A stretch of 54,230 nt of DNA, the filler included, from Sphacelaria rigidula (taxonomy: Eukaryota): NCBI GenBank assembly GCA_964200075.2. It is 5 parts of 5 records of this genome, joined end to end, with 100 filler letters (N's around TTAATTAATTAA, not from the genome) between each part and the next. Parts side by side here need not be neighbours in the genome. Positions count along the whole stretch, not along the records: positions 32,601 to 43,365 come from CAXNAA020005953.1; 4 more parts are not named here. One strand, 5' to 3'. The first letter of the stretch is position 1, and each line of letters starts with the position of its first letter. The notes below the pieces were generated by a model, which saw nothing but the letters and a program-made list of their open reading frames with translations, was not told the origin of the DNA and did no database searches. The translations under genes and the position numbers were made by a program. Shown here piece by piece: positions 10,768 through 43,465 of the stretch.

Positions 10768-10867
10768 NNNNNNNNNNNNNNNNNNNNNNNNNNNNNNNNN
10801 NNNNNNNNNNNTTAATTAATTAANNNNNNNNNNNNNNNNNNNNNNNNNNNNNNNNNNNNNNNNNNNN
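10768..10867. other. Artificial contig-joining spacer (N44-TTAATTAATTAA-N44)
   Basis: Exactly 100 nt with a 12-mer giving stops in all six frames; identical to three other spacers in the window. Confidence 0.97.
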
Positions 10868-21634: not shown

Positions 21635-21734
21635 NNNNNNNNNNNNNNNNNNNNNNNNNNNNNNNNNNNNNNNNNNNNTTAATTAATTAANNNNNNNNNN
21701 NNNNNNNNNNNNNNNNNNNNNNNNNNNNNNNNNN
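21635..21734. other. Artificial contig-joining spacer
   Basis: Same 100-nt N/TTAATTAATTAA structure. Confidence 0.97.
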
Positions 21735-29787: not shown

Positions 29788-30653
29788 CTGCCAAGAGGAC
29801 ATTTGAGGCGAAGATTGTGACATAGCTGGACCAAAAAACAAAAACAGAAGGGAGGTAGTCATGCTGAGGTATATACCTCAGCATGTCTGGGACAATTTCA
29901 GGTACACCCCCTGTGGCGTTGTGATCTTTGCCTCTGGATACGGCAGTCTGATTGGTCGAGGCTGCAGGATATCCGATCACGACTGCGAATCCCGCAGGTG
30001 TGCCTGAAGCTGAGTACTCTATGTGCGTGCCATGTCCCGCGGAGCACGGATTTCCCCCGCCCCTTCCCCCCCGCGCAAAGCAGACGTAACACAGAAATCC
30101 TAACGGCAAACAAGTGGGACCCCCCCAGAGACTAAACCCCAGAACACGACTGAACAGCTTCCTATCATAGCGCCTTGAGAGGTTCGGGCAGGAGCATAAT
30201 CAATGACCGGTTAGGCCTTGTCTTTTTTTGCCAAAAAAATAAAAAAAAGCGTCCGACGTTGGTAACTTCCCGTCCCCGTGTGCATTGCATGCACACGGTG
30301 TAGGGGGGGGGGGGGGAGACGCGAGGCTATTGATAGCTAAAAGGTGATAAGAAACGTGGTCTTCCGCCGAATAACTCGAATATGCCCTAGTACGAAACCC
30401 AGAACCTAGCGTCCACCAGGCGAGATACAAATCTTACGTTGAAAAAAATGTATAGTCCTACCACAGCATAATGCTGTTGCGCTCTAACCGCGATGTCCCG
30501 TTGGTCTGACTGGTACAGTACAATGCGCACACCTTACACCACTTACCGTAGGGTTCGGGAAGAAGGCGGGTTCGATATTCGGGCGGAGGTATTCCGAGTT
30601 TTTTTGTGAGTATCTGATTCCCGTTGGTTGAAGCGTGAGGACGTGCGTGATTA

Positions 30654-32500: not shown

Positions 32501-32600
32501 NNNNNNNNNNNNNNNNNNNNNNNNNNNNNNNNNNNNNNNNNNNNTTAATTAATTAANNNNNNNNNNNNNNNNNNNNNNNNNNNNNNNNNNNNNNNNNNNN
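32501..32600. other. Artificial contig-joining spacer
   Basis: Same 100-nt N/TTAATTAATTAA structure. Confidence 0.97.
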
Positions 32601-34466
32601 ACTCATTATACTAGAACCAAGTGATTTCCAGACAAGTCATTATTTGTCCCACCCTTGCGAGCTTTGGATCGAAAAAGAACGGTACAATTCGTGAAAAGGT
32701 ACATGCTCACTCGTCCAGAGTACAGTCTGTACCGTCTGCACTGCTCGCAAGCAATGTCTCGAGTGCGTGTGTGCGTGTTTTGTACAGAAGGGTATGAAGG
32801 AGAAACGGGCAACGTGCAGTGCAGACATGACAGCACAGTACTATCAGTCCTCGTCGCCTATAATGTGACGTGAAGAGGACTTAAGCAACGTGCAGCTTGT
32901 ACTGCCTGCACTGTTGTTCATGAGCGTTCAGGTGTGCTTCAGCACGTTCGTGACGAAACGAAATGTGCGAACACCGACTGATGCATGTGGGTCAAAGTGA
33001 TCTCCGCCGCCATGAAGTTTCCGTAAGTTCCAACCAACGGCTAGCATTTGGCCAACAGGGTACCACGCACACGGGAACACATGCCCCAAGAAGAAAAGAC
33101 ATCAATGGTGTGGTCGGTAGGGTATTTATCCCGCCCGATACACCTTTGAAGGGCATGGAAGTTTAGCTGCCCGTTACCATCTCTGCGATTTATGATGCCG
33201 AAGCGCCGAATCGCACTAGTACCACCACCGCAAAAGGTACGAAAAACGACCTCAGCAATGACAGTGTGTTCACATACACCGCACAGGCTTGGTATCTGCT
33301 TGACGGACCAGGGAAAATCTTTGAGTAATGATCTAGCTTGTTCAAATTAGGAGCCAAATCGACGGGCCTCTCGTTGCACCAGACGTGACACCCACGTCAC
33401 AAGTTGTGGTATGAATCGCGGTGGAGTACGCGCATGTGTGAGGAGACCAGTTAAAACCAGTCTCGCCACTCTTAGATGATGAAATTTATCGATGAGGGAT
33501 GTGCTTTTTAAGAAAATCTTGACCGTGTGGTAGCTCAGTGCGGGGAATGAAGGACCCCTTCATGATGCACGACATCCGCTACCATACTGCCCAGACGCAG
33601 AACAGAACAGTTCACGGTACAACTGCTGCACTCCATGTCCTGCGACGTGATACCGTCCGTAACTGACATGCTCTAAATACAACATAGTCAAGAGGTGCTG
33701 AACGGGAAATTGGTGCAACTGGTTCTTCGTGAACACCACGGATAACATGGTCCACATTTTACCGTACACGATTGATGTGAATAAATCTGACGCTCACTTG
33801 CTGTACAGTCAGCCCGACATTCAACGGCTACACGGCTTCGGCATGTAGCGTTGCAGGCATCGCGAAACGGGTGACATACAAAACAGCAAATATACACGCA
33901 CAGACAGACAAGAGTATGGCAAAGTGGCAGAGAGTGTGGCAAAAATGGCAGGGCACAGCACGGCACTTCAACGAACTGTACTGACGCGAGATAGTGGTGG
34001 ATTTCACGCAGGGGTGTCATGTTGCTCAGTTCGACCCTACCTTCCCAGGCTGATCGACGGTTGCAGACCAAAGAGGTGCATCCTACGCAATTAGTAAAAG
34101 TACAAGCAAGCCATACGGCACCCACCTGCGTTGCTCGATAAGGACGTCTGGACACGTTGACAGCATGCACAAGTGACAGATTCAAGATCATGTATACACC
34201 GTCTGTGGACTACACATTCGTGGCAATGACACGCGTCACAACTCAGAGTAAAGACGGCTGTGCATACAAGATCTTTCGTGTGGTTCTTGCGCCATCAATG
34301 TGCGCATGTATTCCGCTCATGTAAATGAAGAGAGCCGACGTTTATTACGGCATTGCACCCTTGTGCACACGTCAGGAATAGTTGTACCCGAAGCGACACT
34401 CCATAGCCAACAAACAAAACATATTCGTAGACTCGCGATTAACCCCCGTCTTCCCTCTGCACTCAC

Positions 34467-35077
34467 CTCTTTGGCGTGTACTCAAAGGCCTGCTCTACTG
34501 CCGCCATGGTGTCTTCGAAAGCCACGCCCTCGGGCTCGCTCACCAGTCGCTCCCTCAGACTCGACACAACCACTTCGCCCTCCGACGTAGCACCAGCTGC
34601 ACTCAGCATAGTCGTAGATGCTCTCCTTCTTCCGCTGACACACAGTGCACACGAGCACGCCTCGGACTGACATGAGGCGCAGGAGGGGCACTTGCAGGCA
34701 GCACCGTGAAGCCGGGAGCAGTCTCCGCAACCGCAACCTGCCCCATGAGCCTGCAAACGAACCGAGCAAGCACTGCAGCGGCAACCCCTATCGTGCGATC
34801 TCGCAGACATTGAGGTCGAACGGCACGAAGAACACGTGCAAGACGAGCCGTGGATCCCCAAAGCACATTTGGGACAGGTGCAACCCGCGCTGTTGCAAGA
34901 GCGGACGGCTGCGTCGAGCGCATTGTGGGCGAGGCTCGAGGTGCCCACAACGGAGGTGCGTGCGGTGGAGAGACCACCGGGTGCTACAAAAAAGGCATCG
35001 GCCGTGATGATATTTTTGTTGGTGGCGACAGTCACGAAGGCAAGAATGGCCGTTCCCAATGGACTGAAGGGCTTCAT
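34467..35077 (-). CDS. Exon 1 of a predicted plastid-targeted protein: signal peptide, Cys/His-rich repeats and start of a HopJ-like domain
   Basis: ATG at 35077; hydrophobic N-terminus ending ADA-FFVAP (ASAFAP-like); six CxCxxC motifs; then LRERLVSEPEGVAFEDTMAAVEQAFEYTPK, matching the HopJ-family N-terminus (FxDTxAxIxxxYxxTP); donor AG|gtgagt. Later exons not found before the contig end. Confidence 0.8.
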
Positions 35078-35540
35078 GATTTCGTTGCGCTGCGGATGTT
35101 TGTCGATCGGCTGACCACCCCTGAGCCTGCTCCGTATCTTCTCGAGCTGTGCTGTTCGTGCTGCTTACGACGGTTCCGTTCCGTTCCGCTGAGCATGACC
35201 ATCATTACAGACGAATTAAGGGGCAATGGTCATTTTTGGGGAAATTCGGAATTATTCTGAATCCTCGTATATTGCGATCTTTGGGTATCAGCAGAGACAG
35301 CTCGCTACACCTCGCTGCCTTGCTCTGCCTGTGTTTTTCGAAGGCACGCTCCGCAGTCCACGGCGTTTTTGAATCACCTAAAACGAGAGAACCCAAGTAA
35401 CAAGAGTTGTAATTACACGTGCAAGAGAAGGGAAGGCCCTCCAAGAAGACGTTGACGCGCGTACCGCTGGCATTATCGTCAAGCAGCAACAGCCGTCGAC
35501 CTTTTGACACAACCCTGCCAGAACCACCGAGCGGGCAGAC
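35078..35540. promoter_or_regulatory. Putative bidirectional promoter region
   Basis: Only 463 bp with no recognised repeat between two divergent start codons, in otherwise TE-filled DNA. Confidence 0.55.
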
Positions 35541-38500
35541 ATGAACTTGCCAACGCCTTCGTATGCAGACGACCATTGCTCTGCTCCTGTTCATCGACTG
35601 TCCGAGGATAAAGGCGCTACTATGCGGGAGCGACGGAACTGGTCCATATTTGCAGCGTACGCCCGCCAGGACTACCCGGAGTGCCTGCAGGTCATTGAGG
35701 AGCAGCTGCGGGCCTGTAAGGGCCTGGCCGAGTATCCCATATATGTGAAAGGTGAAACTCGGGACGGATGCGTGCTTATTGCTGCCTAGCCAACCCAAGA
35801 AGGAGTATTTTCGAATGGTTATGATGTTTGAAGCACCGATATAACATGCGTGGCAATACACACTGAAACCGGATTCATTGCTGGAGGGAAGAATGTATAC
35901 CCAAAATTGTACCGCAAAGAGAACGCCTGGCTCGTGAAGTATTGTAGGATCTCACGCCCGCTTCCGAATGCAATTCAGTGCATACAGTACGAGTATCATC
36001 CTACTGTACCATCTCATCGCCCTTCTGTTCACGCATGATAATTTACCCGTGGTTCTTTCTGCCAGCAGGATTATACATGCACCCTTTTCCATTGTGTTTG
36101 CAATCTTGAGACTTGGCCGAAGGCCAGCGCTGCTACAACATATGCTGTACTACGTACACTACCTGTGCTGTGATTGCGACGAAGCCTGTTGCGCCACACG
36201 ATGAGAGCGAGGGCACCCGCTGCACCGATGATTGATTGTCTAACACTAACTGATGCGCTACGAGTCCAGTCATGGTCACCAGGGCAGACACATCTAGGGT
36301 AAATAGCAGGGGAACCTCGGTAGAGAAAACTCGAGGAAGGACAAATAAGAAGAAGGAATCTTCAGATATGACAGGGACTGTCAAGATAGATGGAGGCGAC
36401 CTTTAGCTTTGGGCGAAAATCTATGGTTGATTTTTTCGAGCAAACTAACCGTAACACTAACCCCGACCCAATGCCTACGAGAACCCTGGGGTAAGGGGGG
36501 TGCGAAGGTTCTCCTAGGTAAAGTGTGCGTTGATAGACGTCAAATCGACGCCGCCGGCACCGATTTGGACAAAAACACGTTCTGGACGAGCTGACTCCAC
36601 TGCTCACTTGCTCCAAACCATAAATACTCTCAGAACTTTCTTCACTCCAAAATCAAGTAGTCATCCTGCCAACCATACGTTTTCGCCCAAAGCTAAAGTT
36701 TTATCGAATAGATGCTCACAATGCACCGCGGAGGCTACATGCCCGTGGGTTTCGTACATGACAATGGCTTTGTCGCCACGACCGCGGACAAGCTGGTGAC
36801 CAATGGGTTTCGACATTTCCAAGAGCAATGGTTATTTCGTGGCGTCGTCGGAGACCGGCGCGAGATATTCGGACATATCAGCGTGGTGTCGTTAGGGTCG
36901 ACACAGAGTTTGCAACGAACCACCGGAACACGAGGTTTAGCGTCTGACCCCTGAAGATCGCGCGAGAAATCCAAGTAAGAGTTTGTCGCTAACAGGGTGG
37001 CCATCAGGAGACGTCTGTGATCGTCCGACCACAAGGATCTTGAAGCGTCCTGTCCAGTTGAGGGACAACTTGGCCCTGAGCGCCGCATCGTTATGAGCTT
37101 TTCTGGCTCCTTGGCGAATAGTCACTGTCTGTTGTAGATTCATACCGAATCACGGGCTTTCCAAGTTGGGCGCTTGCGCATGATGTTGCAGAGAGTGGTT
37201 TTCACTCCGTCGATGCGCGAAGCGTGAAACACATGTTCTTCAAGTCATGGAGTTGTGTGGTCTGTCACAAAAAAATCCCGCGATCTGATTGGTCAGGTTT
37301 GAGTCATGTGAGTCCGACCCGATCCGGTGATGGCGGTCATTACAATGGTGGTTTGTCCCAACAAGACAGGCCATCTCTACGGCGGGAACAGTTATTGTTC
37401 TGATGTCGCCGTCGGGACGATCGATGTGGCGACAACCGTTGTTATATATCCGGTGAATTACTCAACCGCCGTGGGAGCGTGAATCTGATCTCCAACTACC
37501 CCGTCGCGCAATCGTCCCGTATTGGACCGGTCCCCACGACGAACATGTTGCAAACAAGAAGAAATACCGCAACATGCGCCACCGCGCAGCAGTCCGAGAG
37601 CTGTACCGTGACAAGGGCTCACGTGTTGTTACCTACGGCTACGACCTAGTATCTCGTGTAAAATTGTGGGGAAAGGTAAAAGCTTTCAAGACAGTCACCT
37701 GCCCAAAGGGGCCTATCCCTGGTCCAAGGGTATTGATAATCTCTGGTGGCTTGGTCAAATCCACTTTGTCGATCCCATCGAAAACAGCACCAAGATCGCG
37801 CGCTTCGTCGACGATCCCGGCCCAGTACTGTACAGCTCAAGCGCGGAGCCGTGATGTCTGGCTACGTGGAACACCACACCTCTGCCTTTCAGCCTCGTGA
37901 CAGTAAACTGAAAACTGGAAAACAATGGAAGCGGGGGAAAGGAAAATAGAGAAAAGAACACGCTTGACTAATACCAACAGCGCCGACCCCGGAAAAAAAT
38001 AACCGGGCAGGCTTGTGTCGGATGTCTTCAGGCAAGACGGCCGTGCGAGAACAAGACGAAATAACATGAAAGAAGGGCGTGGGAGTAGGTTTCTACCCAG
38101 ATATCTCGTGACCACACGGATCGAATAACCACACCACTCAGATATGTAAGGACATCTCTATTTGAGCAGGAGCTCCCACCCTCGAGCTCTGCGGGAGCGA
38201 GATACAAAGCCCACTGTAGCAGTAGAGGAAAGACCTGACCGAGCAAGCTATGGACAGATATCCGAATGCGTTTCATATGAAACTTGTGTTTCCTCACACA
38301 ACAGTAGTATTGGGACCCCTTGACGATATGACTCAAGCTGGGTGTTTTTTTTCGCGATGACAGGGCTGATTATGCGCTCCAGAGGCCGAATAGAGGAATC
38401 TCTGACGCTGTTTCAGGCAGCCACGTGCCTCAACCCGCAGAATCCAGCTAATCTGAAGCAAGTAGGCCGTTGCCTGTTTCTCCTGGGGAAGCACAAGTTT

Positions 38501-41500
38501 GCGCTCGAGGTCTACGACGAGGTCCAAAAGGTGAGCGCGCGTGAAACTGTCGTGCTGTTGTTATATATAGCCGCCGTGGTGTCACGTCTTCATCAACGTC
38601 GCCCAATACCGATTCATCCTAGCCATTCAGCAGAGTTTTTGCTTTAGCTTAGTTCTCGAACAGGATCTTACCCACATATCTTACAAATTGTTTTTATTAT
38701 TGTTTACTGTTTCGCACTTTGAACGCCTCCCCTTCCTCGGGACGAGTCCGTGGTGGTCTCAGGGGATCAACTCATCTCTCCCCGCGGCACACGCTCTGCA
38801 TTTTGGTCTCGTGGATTTGCTCAGCACTCCCGCACCGCGTCAACTCTCGTCAAACAAACTCAGTCAACTACTTTTTGTTTACTCACGTACTAACGTTTTC
38901 GACGATGGAGACCGGATACTCCGAAGAAATAGTCTAACGCATTATCGGGATTCGAGCCCTCCTTATCTCCCCCCTTACGGTGACAGTCGGACCATTGCAC
39001 CACCGGGGCGAGGCGTTACAAATAGACGGAAAATGCGAGAATGACGTCGTGTATAGAAGCGGTTGAATGAATCCTTTGGTTTACAGCTATTATTTTACCA
39101 AGGAAATAATAACAGTCGTCTCAATTATCATCTGATTTTCTTAATTCATTTCTAGCCATCCCAGACTAAACGCCATACCGTTCCGTTAACGTGTGACACT
39201 ACAGTTGGTAATAATCGACGTGCCGAGTAGCCTGTGCGTGTTACTCGTCCGGTGTTACAGCGGTTGCACACTGACCGGCAGATATTGCCCATCCGGTTCC
39301 ATCGAGTTTATTGTTGCTCAACCACAGCATTATTTTTCAGTATTTTGAAGATACAATGCGTATCTGTCACTTACCGCTTAAGACCACATGTGAAAATAAT
39401 TACCAAGCGACGTGCGAGTGCCTGTCGATCCGGTATCGTTACGGAGAACGTCCAACTCACGTGTTGGAAAATTTTACACGCCCTTGAACCCCAAGCCGTT
39501 GTCTGCTACGATGGTAACTGAACGGCGACAATATCGCGAAGCGTCGAGGACGCATTGCCTCACTCAGTACTCGATGCACTCCACGTCGCGTTTGCGTCTA
39601 CGCTGAGCGTGGACAGCTCGATGCAGAAGACTGGGAGGTATGGCACAACCGCGCGCTGTGCTACGTGCACCTCAAGCAGTTTGAACGAGCGTTGGAATCT
39701 TTCGAGCAGGCGAACTCCATCAGCAGGCACGACGCCACCTTTCTGCAAATGGGGAAGGTTAGAGGATATCTTGACTGTATTGGTACCCTCCTTCGCCTCG
39801 AGGTTGGGATGTCTGACGTCTGCCGTACGAGGAATGACCCAGAGGGTGCATACGATATCCTTGTTTTTGCGACCGATATATGTAGAGACGTGTCTGTGTG
39901 TCTTGCCTCCTGTTTTGTTTGTTGATGAGCCGTGCTATCTACTTGTAGTCGTCCCGCTTGCGCTCCTCATCTCATCCCGGAGTAATTCGATTTCGATTCT
40001 GTGCACACACTGCATCGACAACCGCAGGTTTATCGCTTACAAGGCAAGCCGGATGAAGCGCTGGCAGTTTTCGAGGTGAGGAAGAGGCATTTCTACCCAT
40101 GTACACACGACAGAACGTGATATGTTTTTATTTTGTCAAACGCTATTATTTCTGTATGACTCGTCGCTGGACAGTGTGTTCTGTTCAGGGCACTCGAAGA
40201 TCAATTACGTTTGATTCTGTGGAGGGATAAAAGCTGTTCTGTCACACAAATCGTAGTTTTCAATGAAAGAAGCAAGCCTTCGCATGTAGCGCGACCATTC
40301 CCACTTGGCCGGAAGCGGCAAATATGACTATGCAAGGAACCCAGCCTACGAATGGGAGGTATGGATGCTGTAGAGCCTTGGCGACTAGATCAATCCCCAC
40401 CGAGATACCTAAAAAAACTCCGTACGTTGATAGCTTCATTGGACCGCACGTACATCTCTTTCTCCATGTCTTTTTCTCTCCTTCTCTCCTTTTTTTTCTC
40501 TCCCTCCCCTTCCCCCTCCACCCCCCCTCTCCCTATTGACTGGAAATTTCTCGGTACGGTAGAGGACAAAGATCCTCGTCAAGTTCATTGGGGGGGAAGA
40601 CAGCACTCAATTCTTGTTAAATTCCGTCTTGTCGTTCGCAGGAGGCGCTAGAGTTCTCGCCCGAAAGCCCGGAGCTCCTGACCACGGTTGGGCTGTTGCA
40701 CCTGCAGCAGGGAGACAATCAGAAAGCATTCGAGCGCCTGGGTAGCGCCCTCACGCACGACCCTCGGGATCCGAAAGCGATTCTTGCGGCGGGGTGGGTT
40801 TTTGCTCGCACTTTCTTCTGCACTGCTGCTGAATGTTGGTATCCAACACCGCCTGTGCGCCCGTGTTACCGTTCTGTGCTTCGCCTATGTGCCAGTAAAT
40901 CCGTAGACAGCAATCTTGGCACATCTCCACCTTCAAACGCAAACCAGGGTATTATTAACGCAGGTTCCCCCGTGTCTTCGGGGCGGTTAAGGTCGCAGAT
41001 CGTAGAAGCGGAAGTCAAGAATGAGCACTGTTCTTCGGTTATCTCGATATCTCGCTCGTCCCCTCTCCCGTGAATCCACTCTCCCACCCCCGCGTATGCG
41101 CCGCTCGTTCTTATACGCAACGCCAGATCAATCATTCAAGACAACCAGGACATGGATGTAGCCCTCGTCAAGTATAGGGTGGCTGCCGTTCAGGTAAGGG
41201 CATCATATGCTCAAATGGTTGGGTATTTTCGTCTCCTCATGAGTGATGTTACGATAGGGGGGTGTTATTGGCCGTGTCTTCCCCGAAATTCCATCAACCC
41301 GTCGCTGAAAGCAGCAACGGTTGTTCGAACGCGCTTGCTGCCGGTGAATAACGCTCATCCATTCTGCTTGACCGTTTTCACCCAGATATAACCGCACCGC
41401 GAGTGTGTTAGGTCGTCTGGCACACATATGATATCTTTTTTTCGTGGAACCAACCCCCCCACTCCCCCCGGTCATATCATGACCCTCATGTAGTACTCGT

Positions 41501-41955
41501 CAGGAGCCGACCGCTGAACTCTTCTCTTGTGGTCATTTTCTTGCGCGGAAGAGGCGTACGCGCTGAGGTTGAGAGAGAGTGGCTTGCCCAACATCGTGGG
41601 TACGCCTTGTTGCCGTCTATCAATCGCAACGAAACATGAAGGCTTTTTGTGGTTGCATCATGTGTGTCGCCACTATTGTATGGAAGCGGTACACGATACG
41701 TACATCAAAAGCTACAAACCCGCCGTCGGGTGCAGCCTGTGTGGCCGTTCTCGAGGTCCTCCCCTGGTTGTTTCACTGTGCACGTTCTTCCTTTGCTCGG
41801 TCGACCCACCATCATCATGACTCATTGCAAGGCTCAACGGGAAAAGCTGTTCGTTTCCCGAAACCTCCGTTCATCGTTTCTTCTTGTCGCTGAATACACA
41901 GACACCAAATTCGGCACAGCTGTGGAACAACATAGGCATGTGCTTCTTCGGGAAG
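35541..41955 (+). CDS. BBS4: Bardet-Biedl syndrome 4 protein (BBSome TPR subunit), 5' part. Exons 35541-35751, 38364-38530, 39617-39757, 40028-40075, 40642-40793, 41127-41193, 41902-41955
   Basis: Seven GT-AG exons join in phase to 840 nt (280 aa) with no stops: ERRNW...[13 protein letters not shown]...[23 protein letters not shown]...[23 protein letters not shown]...[24 protein letters not shown]...[13 protein letters not shown]...[15 protein letters not shown], the conserved BBS4 sequence. Alternative in-frame ATG at 35622. The 3' exons lie beyond the contig. Confidence 0.95.
36560..37450 (-). mobile_element. Gypsy integrase C-terminal/chromodomain remnant inside BBS4 intron 1
   Basis: TIRQGARK...[19 protein letters not shown]...[11 protein letters not shown]...[13 protein letters not shown] and HQLVRGRG motifs; frameshifted; antisense to the host gene. 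Confidence 0.7.
38690..39010 (-). mobile_element. tRNA-derived SINE-like element inside BBS4 intron 2
   Basis: Minus strand begins GCCCCGGTGGTGCAATGG (A box), has GGGCTCGAATCCC (B-box-like), is about 320 bp long and ends in an A-rich tail; partial copies at 2450-2725, 21930-22010, 22440-22510 and 31305-31365. Confidence 0.75.
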
Positions 41956-43365
41956 GTGGGTTCGACTCTTGGTACGTAGCGTACACTGAATGAGTATACA
42001 GCTCCGTAGAAGGAAGGACTATTGCGGAGGAACATTGTTAGTACGAGTGTATACATGAACGGACGTAACTCGAGCGTTCATCGGCATATTTTAACAAACG
42101 ATATCTCGGATGCACCGCAAGGTCCCCGCGGTCAGCGGCCAGCGACAAGAACAAAACAAAACAGTGCACAATAATACTGAAAGCCCGTTTCGTGAACGTT
42201 TCCTGTTGGCGTCCCTCCAACCCTGTATACTAGTTTTGTAATACTCCTATTATCAGTAACAGTGCGCCCCGGTAATAATTCGGTATACAGCCCCGTAAGA
42301 GGAATGGTTCGCAGTACATTCTGTCGCCATTCAGTGCTGCCTAATCACGAAATGTGTGCCAGGTGTACTGCCGTTTTTTTACAGCCGAAGAATGGAATGG
42401 ATGAACTGACGCAGGGGCCATGCGCACACTTGATGAACGCTCGCTACATTATTCGTCAACATATTTTGCGTACATTTGCCGGAGGGAAAGTCGAGCAGTA
42501 ATCGGCTGTGCCTCCTTGTTGGGATCTTCGCAATACGTCGCTCTCACGCACAAAATATGAACGCTACTGTTTTGCATAGTTCCACCGCTAAACGGACGGC
42601 TCAAAAATCTTCGCTCTACTACCCAACGTGGAGATACGTGTGCTGGGAAAGACTCTCCTTCGACCTTACGCATGCTTCGTACGTGAACATCATAGCCTTA
42701 CACCCGCAGTGTGCACATCAGAGATTAAGTAGACTACTATTATTCTACTTCAATAATGAGATTAGCGCACTTTTTTTTTATAATGGCAGCAACGGCGCAA
42801 GCAAACATCAACATTTCTCAAAAGTGTGTGAAACTGGGAGAGTGATCAGGCGCAGCATTGGACGGGTCTTCCTCGCATGTGTCTACTCCCTCTACCTTTC
42901 CCGTCAGTTGCTCCAAACCTCATCATCAGTGCCTCAGTAGCACCAATATTTGTTGGGAGATTATCCTCTCCCGCTTCACCTCGATCCCACCTGTCCTTCT
43001 TTTCCGGGTTCGGTGTCTGCTCGTTTCTCCCGCGGAAGTAGATGACTTTTTTCCAAAAAGCAGGTGGCGCCTGAGCATGCTTCAAATATCACGTGAAAAG
43101 TATTACAAAACCACATTGCGTGTCGGTCGCATGTTTCTGCACTCATCATACTGTGTGGGGCCTACCTTACTAAGCGTATCAACAGTTTTTCTACTTCCGG
43201 TGTTGAGACTGCCCCGACCTACCTTCCCGCCACTCGTCCCCCTCCCCGTGACTATGATGTGCATGATCATGAGTATCCCCCCCCTCTCCTTTGGTTTACG
43301 TCACATCATTTCCCCCCCCCTCCATCGTTTTTAGTGGTGACGCACTCATGAGGCCGTGTAAAAGC

Positions 43366-43465
43366 NNNNNNNNNNNNNNNNNNNNNNNNNNNNNNNNNNN
43401 NNNNNNNNNTTAATTAATTAANNNNNNNNNNNNNNNNNNNNNNNNNNNNNNNNNNNNNNNNNNNN
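43366..43465. other. Artificial contig-joining spacer
   Basis: Same 100-nt N/TTAATTAATTAA structure. Confidence 0.97.

Follow-up and report, generated by a model that had tools for sequence, protein, structure and literature searches.

A predicted Sphacelaria rigidula protein that joins a plastid-type presequence, a putative metal-binding Cys/His array and the beginning of a HopJ domain

What is the product of an exon in which a plastid-type presequence leads into a repeated Cys/His array and then into the beginning, only, of a HopJ domain? The exon lies in a 54,230-nucleotide stretch of DNA of Sphacelaria rigidula (assembly GCA_964200075.2; the window), which is made up of five pieces of ~10.77 kb joined by N44-TTAATTAATTAA-N44 linkers at 10768–10867, 21635–21734, 32501–32600 and 43366–43465; adjoining pieces are not necessarily neighbours in the genome, and genes are cut at the piece ends. 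In the fourth piece (32601–43365), the minus-strand frame that begins at the ATG at 35077–35075 is open for 203 codons and two further bases, up to a splice donor. The initial annotation took 35077–34467 to be a single coding exon, and the translation (P0001) does hold every peptide string listed in it. The other frames and the opposite strand of this stretch contain no Pfam family apart from a sub-threshold Defensin-like match (E 0.076) that we judged to be due to chance. The reading that we consider probable, if by no means secure, is that the exon encodes a presequence, a metal-binding array and a HopJ stub, and that its product is a 205-residue, array-only short form of a protein family of the brown-alga type, which serves as a store or buffer in the plastid.

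The array comprises six units, CNSAGCTCPKC, HGSSCTCSSC, HDRGCRCSAC, HGAGCGCGDC, HGAACKCPSC and CQSEACSCALC, each with the spacing CxCxxC, and a script count over residues 61–146 returned the 20 Cys and 4 His that had been reported. A His at −4 precedes four of the units and a Cys at −5 precedes two. When residues 61–146 were shuffled 100,000 times, six or more CxCxxC occurrences were obtained in none of the shuffles (the highest number was five), and the array is therefore excluded as a product of chance even at its given composition. No repeat was detected in the exon at the DNA level by Tandem Repeats Finder, an indication that the units are old and that the repeat is held at the ligand residues only, rather than being a recent duplication.

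The N-terminus, with Lys at position 2 and a hydrophobic core, has the appearance of a signal peptide and continues as T-A-D-A|F-F-V-A-P at residues 25–33, where the cleavage site, read by eye, leaves F29 at the +1 position. Residues 29–60 are rich in Ser, Thr, Ala and Gly and include one acidic residue. According to the part of the HECTAR paper available to us (PMC2567999), heterokont plastid proteins carry a signal peptide and a transit peptide, and in the ASAFAP motif the +1 position is nearly always Phe (rarely Trp, Tyr or Leu), with Ala at both −3 and −1; this Phe is required for passage past the periplastid space, and its absence marks periplastid or secreted proteins. The A-D-A|F-F junction, initially proposed to be a plastid-import signal, fits this motif with its small residues at −3 and −1 and its Phe at +1, and F29 is kept in at least 90% of the 22 family members that we aligned. 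Import of the protein into the plastid is a well-founded prediction from these features.

The C-terminal part had been described as the start of a HopJ-like domain, a description that holds, although this part is short. The Pfam HopJ profile, PF08888, aligns residues 173–202 to its positions 3–32 of 109, but the match (15.2 bits, E 0.027) lies below the gathering score of 27 bits, by which the window product as a whole does not qualify for membership. With the C-terminal 37 residues alone the score is 20 bits, and PF08888 is the best family at E≤1 for all 11 of the family C-termini scanned, with a best E of 2.3e-4 and every score below the gathering score. AlphaFold predicts two helices in the stub, which ends in ...FEYTPK(R), at residues 165–180 and 187–197, with a predicted local distance difference test score (pLDDT) of ~94 (range over the stub, 78–94), and these equal the first two helices of the full HopJ fold modelled for a relative from Ectocarpus sp. 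8. Since the corresponding residues of the relatives run straight into a complete HopJ domain, since all 11 C-termini match the profile and since the helices agree, the stub is, on the evidence of sequence and model, homologous to the N-terminal helices of HopJ.

By its sequence, the exon is part of an unnamed family found mostly in brown algae and Chrysoparadoxa, of which ~40 proteins were retrieved. A phmmer search with P0001 against 1.84 billion representatives returned 14 proteins (best E 7.5e-34 and 1.7e-33), a profile of the C-terminal ~40 residues returned 21, and more named members came from cluster look-ups; a metagenome scan with the family alignment gave 447 pattern matches and no relative. 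Nearly all of the unnamed members are genomic open reading frame (ORF) calls that end in ...PKR, the ending that readthrough at AG|GTGAGT yields, which indicates that the intron position and its phase, 2, are conserved in the family. The window exon has the family layout throughout: Phe at +1, HxxxCxCxxC units, a GRRxAS linker, the segment LRxRL..FEDTMAAI..FDYTPKR and a phase-2 intron after PK(R). As had been expected of orthologues, the Cys/His spacing, HxxxCxCxxC, is kept in the alignments, and the Cys residues of units 1 and 5 are present in at least 90% of the 22 aligned members. Also common to the family are the linker consensus GxRxASSLTVMxMG, in which R151 is nearly invariant among the same 22 members, and the C-terminal block LRQRLxxEPxSVxFEDTMAAIxxGFDYTPKR. 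The number of CxCxxC units is one in Cladosiphon, four in Ectocarpus, Choristocarpus and Chrysoparadoxa, five in Ascophyllum (by reading of the sequence), six in the window and its closest unnamed relatives, seven in P0003 and eight in P0017.

Five named relatives are full-length fusions of the array with HopJ: Ectocarpus sp. 8 CAM9529365.1 (258 residues), Choristocarpus tenellus CAM9235321.1 (277), Chrysoparadoxa australica CAM9501828.1 (224), isoform t1 of Cladosiphon okamuranus g13736 (207) and Ascophyllum nodosum CAN0230758.1 (292; read from the sequence, with no Pfam scan). All five cross the PKR junction into ...PKRF-x-NG...NEGSCK...GEHYR...HGNIRAF..., and in four of them, all but the Ascophyllum protein, positions 3–105 of PF08888 are matched at 110–126 bits, or 110–130 bits when a Nemacystus model that consists of the HopJ part alone is included. 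The rest of HopJ is a single ORF in Ascophyllum (P0045). The proposed fusion of the array to a bacterial-type HopJ domain is thus real in these relatives, but the transcript seen in the window species stops after the stub, as described below. In public databases members of the family are named only 'unnamed protein product' or 'expressed unknown protein'. Our literature search, which combined HopJ with brown algae, Ectocarpus, diatoms and the accessions and did not extend to supplementary files, found no description of the architecture, in agreement with the initial annotation; the HopJ literature, among the matches listed, mostly concerns Pseudomonas effectors or the unrelated Helicobacter HopJ. 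What the family presents is a known orphan domain in an undescribed lineage-specific architecture with an undescribed repeat unit.

The exon is transcribed, as had been predicted, if three RNA-like sequencing runs (X1, X2 and X3) are taken for what they appear to be. In all three, contigs of 1079 (X1), 2479 (X2) and 1081 (X3) nucleotides, at depths of 1274, 641 and 1226, respectively, fit exactly 34466–35120/35123, whereas contigs from the flanking intron and intergenic sequence are few and of depth 2–3. The DNA-like run X7 has one flat piece across 32867–35600 at depth 69. This contrast is as RNA would give, and the 3′ end of the exon coincides precisely with the predicted donor. As a measure of expression contig depth is poor, and it was used only as a sign of abundant RNA-like material, and parts of the window left uncovered in X1–X3 were not taken as evidence.

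Past 34466 the contigs continue by 424 (X1), 1822 (X2) and 423 (X3) letters, which are found nowhere in 32601–35600; the first 20 of them have no match in the window at up to 3 mismatches. The next exon must therefore lie at least 1.86 kb away, beyond the piece boundary. Read on the minus strand from the base that follows the matched G at 34466, the 30 letters printed begin AGC TAA TAA in X1 and X2 and AGC TGA TAA in X3, so that the frame reads ...Y-T-P-K-R-S-stop-stop and gives a product of 205 residues. The allelic difference in X3, TAA>TGA, exchanges one stop for another, as fits a genuine stop codon. The same X3 allele has A>G at 34939 and 34950, giving S47P and V43A (hand translation), both in the transit-peptide-like stretch. 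The short-form reading rests on the printed loose letters being those that adjoin the junction. At 32602, 32605 and 32607, three 'before' loose ends of 213, 67 and 40 letters show one repeat motif in equal register to within 1 nucleotide, and from this shared register we take it that the letters nearest a junction are the ones printed.

The initial expectation that a downstream exon would complete HopJ is contradicted by the only spliced form seen, in which the junction is followed by one base, a Ser codon and two stops in X1–X3. Searching the whole window by tblastn with eight HopJ-bearing relatives found no HopJ-like exon; of the weak matches beyond exon 1, the best, at 30201–30043 (minus strand, E 0.10–0.75), lies in another piece, is of low complexity and overlaps 'DYxPxR' of exon 1, and was set aside as chance. 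A long isoform in Sphacelaria rigidula is possible. Short models also occur among the relatives: eight of the nine retrieved Ectocarpus models end in PKR or PKRL, including the E. siliculosus 'expressed unknown protein', the Cladosiphon isoform t2, annotated beside the full t1, ends in PKRL, and one unnamed protein ends in PKRR. The extra Leu, Arg or Ser after PKR does not come from readthrough into a GT-initial intron, in which the next codon would start with TG or TA for the usual donor. By their sequence the models ending in PKRL and PKRR may thus be spliced short forms like that of the window, and most of the public Ectocarpus models ending in PKR may represent either a real isoform or a systematic cut in annotation.

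The repeat unit also exists apart from HopJ. P0012, P0013 and P0010 are stand-alone arrays that lack a HopJ part, with 6–7 HxxxCxCxxC units recurring every ~11 residues; those of P0012 and P0013, in which Pfam found nothing, follow A-x-A|F presequences, that of P0013 reading ...ATAFAPASS. P0011, from the chromatophore-bearing rhizarian Paulinella micropora (EukProt g80623.t1), has seven tandem NPEHGDGCECSKC units with the identical H-x3-C-x-C-x2-C spacing. The Paulinella unit may mean that the unit is distributed more widely than the ochrophytes, or it may be convergent.

Taken together, the observations suggest the following model. The gene, a nuclear one from an ochrophyte close to the brown algae, would have its first coding exon at 35077–34467, and this exon would encode, in order, a signal peptide, a hydroxylated transit-peptide-like stretch, six diverged H/C-x3-4-C-x-C-x2-C repeats, a GRRxAS..T.M linker and the first two HopJ helices. 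The A-D-A|F-F junction would lead to import into the four-membrane plastid. In the full-length relatives, HopJ is completed by a second exon, which follows a phase-2 intron that interrupts the Arg codon of 'PKR'; here the assembled transcript joins exon 1 to the distant stop-bearing exon, which lies outside the window piece. Once the protein is imported and its presequence removed, each unit could offer a His (or Cys) and three Cys to Zn(II), Cu(I) or Cd(II), either in one tetrahedral site per unit or in shared thiolate clusters, and the array would act as a plastid metal store or buffer on which thiol oxidation could act as a release or a switch. In proteins that have a full HopJ domain, the array would serve that domain; the short form would be the array-only version. 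By analogy with known Cys-rich proteins, the function that we favour is that of a plastid array which binds soft metals and may be switched by thiol oxidation. A further proposal, that these proteins constitute an undescribed plastid family of brown algae and their relatives in which a new tandem His-Cys3 metal-binding unit is combined with HopJ and a conserved choice of last exon gives either the fusion or the array-only form, is offered tentatively; that it holds in full seems to us rather unlikely.

Several observations weigh against the array-only plastid buffer. Runs X1–X6 are only guessed to be RNA, none being recorded as such, and X1–X3, the ones used, come from one study; they are assemblies, from which rare variants are dropped, so that a minor long isoform would go unseen, and the window piece ends at 32601, before any downstream exon. 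Across 11 members the mean column identity of the stub is 68%, a strong conservation that would be easier to understand were a full HopJ domain still produced. Since the number of units ranges from one to eight, the function of the family does not require a metal site of fixed stoichiometry. The array itself has a pLDDT of 44–62 and thus no confident fold without metal, and it matched no Pfam family, PDB sequence or Atlas cluster: the ESM Atlas returned no usable match to P0001 or P0013, P0013 found nothing below E 0.087 among PDB sequences, and metallothionein families were absent from the Pfam results at E≤10 for the window product and at E≤0.01 for P0012 and P0013. The conservation of the stub and the loss of rare variants from assembled contigs also speak for a different account of the transcript, in which a full array–HopJ fusion is functional here too, the real exon 2 lies beyond the piece, and the short transcript is an isoform made by an alternative terminal exon or intronic polyadenylation, or a by-product. 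That five named relatives encode a complete HopJ directly after PKR, that the remainder in Ascophyllum is the single-exon ORF P0045 and that the Cladosiphon annotation has a long isoform, t1, as well as a short one, t2, would all be natural on this account. However, the contigs pass unbroken into the stop-bearing exon in each of the three runs, and the retrieved Ectocarpus models are, with one exception in nine, short too; we regard a functional full fusion in this species as doubtful, though a possibility to be taken seriously.

The remaining alternatives concern the array and its location. CxxC pairs in every unit, a low-confidence, disordered AlphaFold prediction and a presequence of plastid type would suit a thiol-disulfide module, a disordered regulator, with CP12 as a likeness, that follows the redox poise of the stroma through these pairs. 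A disulfide switch has no need, however, of a His conserved four residues before the first Cys (in four of the six units here and six of six in several relatives), a residue that sets of metal ligands typically include; its conservation favours metal over a pure dithiol-disulfide regulator, and Pfam gave no CP12 or thioredoxin-like similarity at E≤10, so that we find the redox module fairly unlikely. The protein might instead be secreted or held in the endomembrane system, for example as a cell-surface or vacuolar metal binder: brown algae handle metals outside the cell, and, of the targeting elements, the signal peptide alone is legible with some confidence. Against such a location, which we consider improbable, stand the Phe after A-x-A, a discriminating plastid feature in the part of PMC2567999 available to us, and the next ~30 residues, hydroxylated and nearly without acidic residues. 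Finally, the array might belong to a long removable presequence, with processing near GRRxAS leaving the HopJ part as the mature protein, given a composition that resembles a transit peptide (Ser, Ala, Gly and Arg, few acidic residues), unit numbers that vary by species and a conserved basic motif that follows the array. Yet Cys and His stay in place from lineage to lineage while other residues drift, with no repeat at the DNA level, which argues for selection on the ligands themselves; the stand-alone arrays of P0012 and P0013 have a plastid-type presequence of their own and no HopJ part; and the stretch after RR, by a hand calculation, appears short and too weakly hydrophobic for a twin-arginine signal at GRRxAS..TVM, a candidate that we rejected. 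A discarded array is the account to which we give least credence.

The HopJ domain of the relatives is of the bacterial type. The Choristocarpus protein matches PDB entries 2QHQ and 2QM2 (Vibrio parahaemolyticus VPA0580, 'unknown function') at E 6e-24, and the AlphaFold model of the Ectocarpus sp. 8 protein superimposes on them with a Foldseek template-modelling (TM) score of 0.92 and a root-mean-square deviation of 0.8 Å (VIA Z 20.7). Only these two HopJ entries were returned by the fold search with the full-length relative; the N-terminal domain of 2RIJ came next, its Z of 6.8 lying in the range of common arrangements. The nearest bacterial homologues, at 43 loci (L001–L043) with 43–58% identity, belong to marine Gammaproteobacteria (Marinobacterium, Endozoicomonas, Oceanospirillaceae and others), and those bacterial HopJ proteins that most resemble the algal ones have the motif HGNIRAFM in common, a similarity in sequence that hints at HopJ gene transfer between marine bacteria and algae. 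No conserved gene neighbour was found at the 43 loci, where the commonest families, each in 9–11 loci, give no functional hint (ABC ATPase 11, semialdehyde dehydrogenase 10, QSregVF_b 9, CLC channel 9); a neighbour cluster of 12 loci proved to be an antisense ORF over HopJ itself. The statement that HopJ proteins are mostly bacterial and single-domain is broadly right, but algal proteins with three or four tandem HopJ domains exist: P0028 has four and P0029 three by Pfam, and P0030 has repeats by reading of the sequence only. In P0029, an MMETSP transcript, the HopJ domains stand behind a Dabb stress-responsive barrel. In P0032, from Chrysoparadoxa australica, the Cys of the HopJ motif NEGSCK, invariant elsewhere, is replaced by Ser, an exchange that bears on whether this Cys is catalytic. 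HopJ-type proteins were depleted under heat stress in the diatom symbionts of a foraminifer according to the part of a proteomics study available to us (PMC5824892), which shows only that algal HopJ proteins are made.

Features of the locus, in window coordinates, with the basis of each assignment
Feature	Position	Strand	Basis
5′ untranslated leader	35078..35123	-	RNA-like contigs stop at 35120-35123, 43-46 nucleotides upstream of the ATG
Signal peptide (predicted), residues 1-28	34994..35077	-	Sequence; F29 conservation; motif rule in the available part of PMC2567999
Transit-peptide-like stretch, residues 29-60	34898..34993	-	Sequence; putative assignment as transit peptide
Array of six (H/C)x3-4-CxCxxC units, residues 61-146	34640..34897	-	Counts, shuffles, conservation
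Linker, residues 147-164, with G-R-R-x-A-S..T-x-M motif	34586..34639	-	Family alignment
HopJ N-terminal stub, residues 165-203 and two bases of codon 204	34467..34585	-	PF08888 match, AlphaFold
Splice donor GT (AG|GTGAGT), phase 2	34465..34466	-	Sequence; contig ends in X1, X2 and X3
Intron, at least 1.86 kb, up to the piece end	32601..34464	-	RNA-like contig depth 0-3

The far end of the intron, 32601–32914, is a high-copy repeat: the summed contig depth in X7 is 13,000–62,000 against 69 in the adjoining unique sequence, loose ends and variant letters abound, and copies occur in the RNA-like runs too. Within the intron, the minus strand of 34091–34294 holds a stop-free, Cys-rich frame of 67 residues (CDACHCHEC...CACC) that weakly matches the array of the relatives (tblastn, E 0.035–0.16) and is overlapped by a low-depth RNA-like contig (33997–34235, depth 3); it could be a chance occurrence or a decayed fragment of an array. 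On the plus strand, 35541–35750 is an ATG-initiated frame of 70 residues, MNLPTPSY...EYPIYVKG, which extends up to a GT and contains no Pfam family at E≤0.1. It is divergent to the array gene and 464 nucleotides from its ATG, and the two may share a promoter region.

The architecture initially proposed thus holds for the family, but in the transcript seen here HopJ is not completed. HopJ is a widespread orphan domain with a crystal structure, and the presequence and the array give ideas about its site and its chemistry. If the pairing of a fusion with an array-only form is true, the array would be a first handle on the activity of HopJ, pointing to chemistry that depends on metal or thiols, and the pair of isoforms would be a regulated one. 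The HxxxCxCxxC unit matches no Pfam family and, occurring as it also does in the stand-alone arrays and in Paulinella micropora, may represent a small metal-binding module of broader use among algae. Because brown algae accumulate metals on a large scale, a buffer for metal in their plastids would also be interesting physiologically.

Comparison with known systems sets out what is particular to this protein. Bacterial HopJ (PF08888) is a single-domain protein with a median length of ~118 residues, to which the algal family adds a bipartite presequence and the Cys/His array, with an intron that splits the domain; relative to a full HopJ, the window transcript keeps the first two helices only. 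The brown-alga and Chrysoparadoxa models, including Ectocarpus siliculosus CBN80086.1, are 37–49% identical to the window protein and have the same order of parts, +1 Phe, spacing, linker and intron site, but they differ from it in the number of units, and the five full-length models include the second HopJ exon, whereas most Ectocarpus models stop at PKR or one residue beyond. CxC and CxxC are the usual spacings of metallothioneins, and a brown-alga metallothionein, that of Fucus, exists. The array resembles such proteins in being a short stretch of ~23% Cys, arranged as CxC and CxxC with some His and without a confident fold in the absence of metal, but a unit of 11–16 residues with a leading His, a plastid-type presequence and a HopJ part are not features of metallothioneins. 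The ZAS motif, HxxxCxxC, is a combined zinc and thiol-redox switch; here there is a resemblance only, in a His four residues before a Cys and then a CxxC-type pair, since the spacing is H-x3-C-x-C-x2-C, no anti-sigma domain is present and the unit is tandemly repeated. In the SV40 small t antigen, two zinc ions are bound by two CxCxxC clusters, with a stabilising effect on the protein, as stated in the part of PMC1945078 available to us. This polyomavirus protein has the identical six-residue Cys spacing but no relationship in sequence or fold to the window array, and its two clusters lie inside a folded domain, whereas the algal protein carries six tandem units, each defined by the same spacing, with a conserved upstream His.

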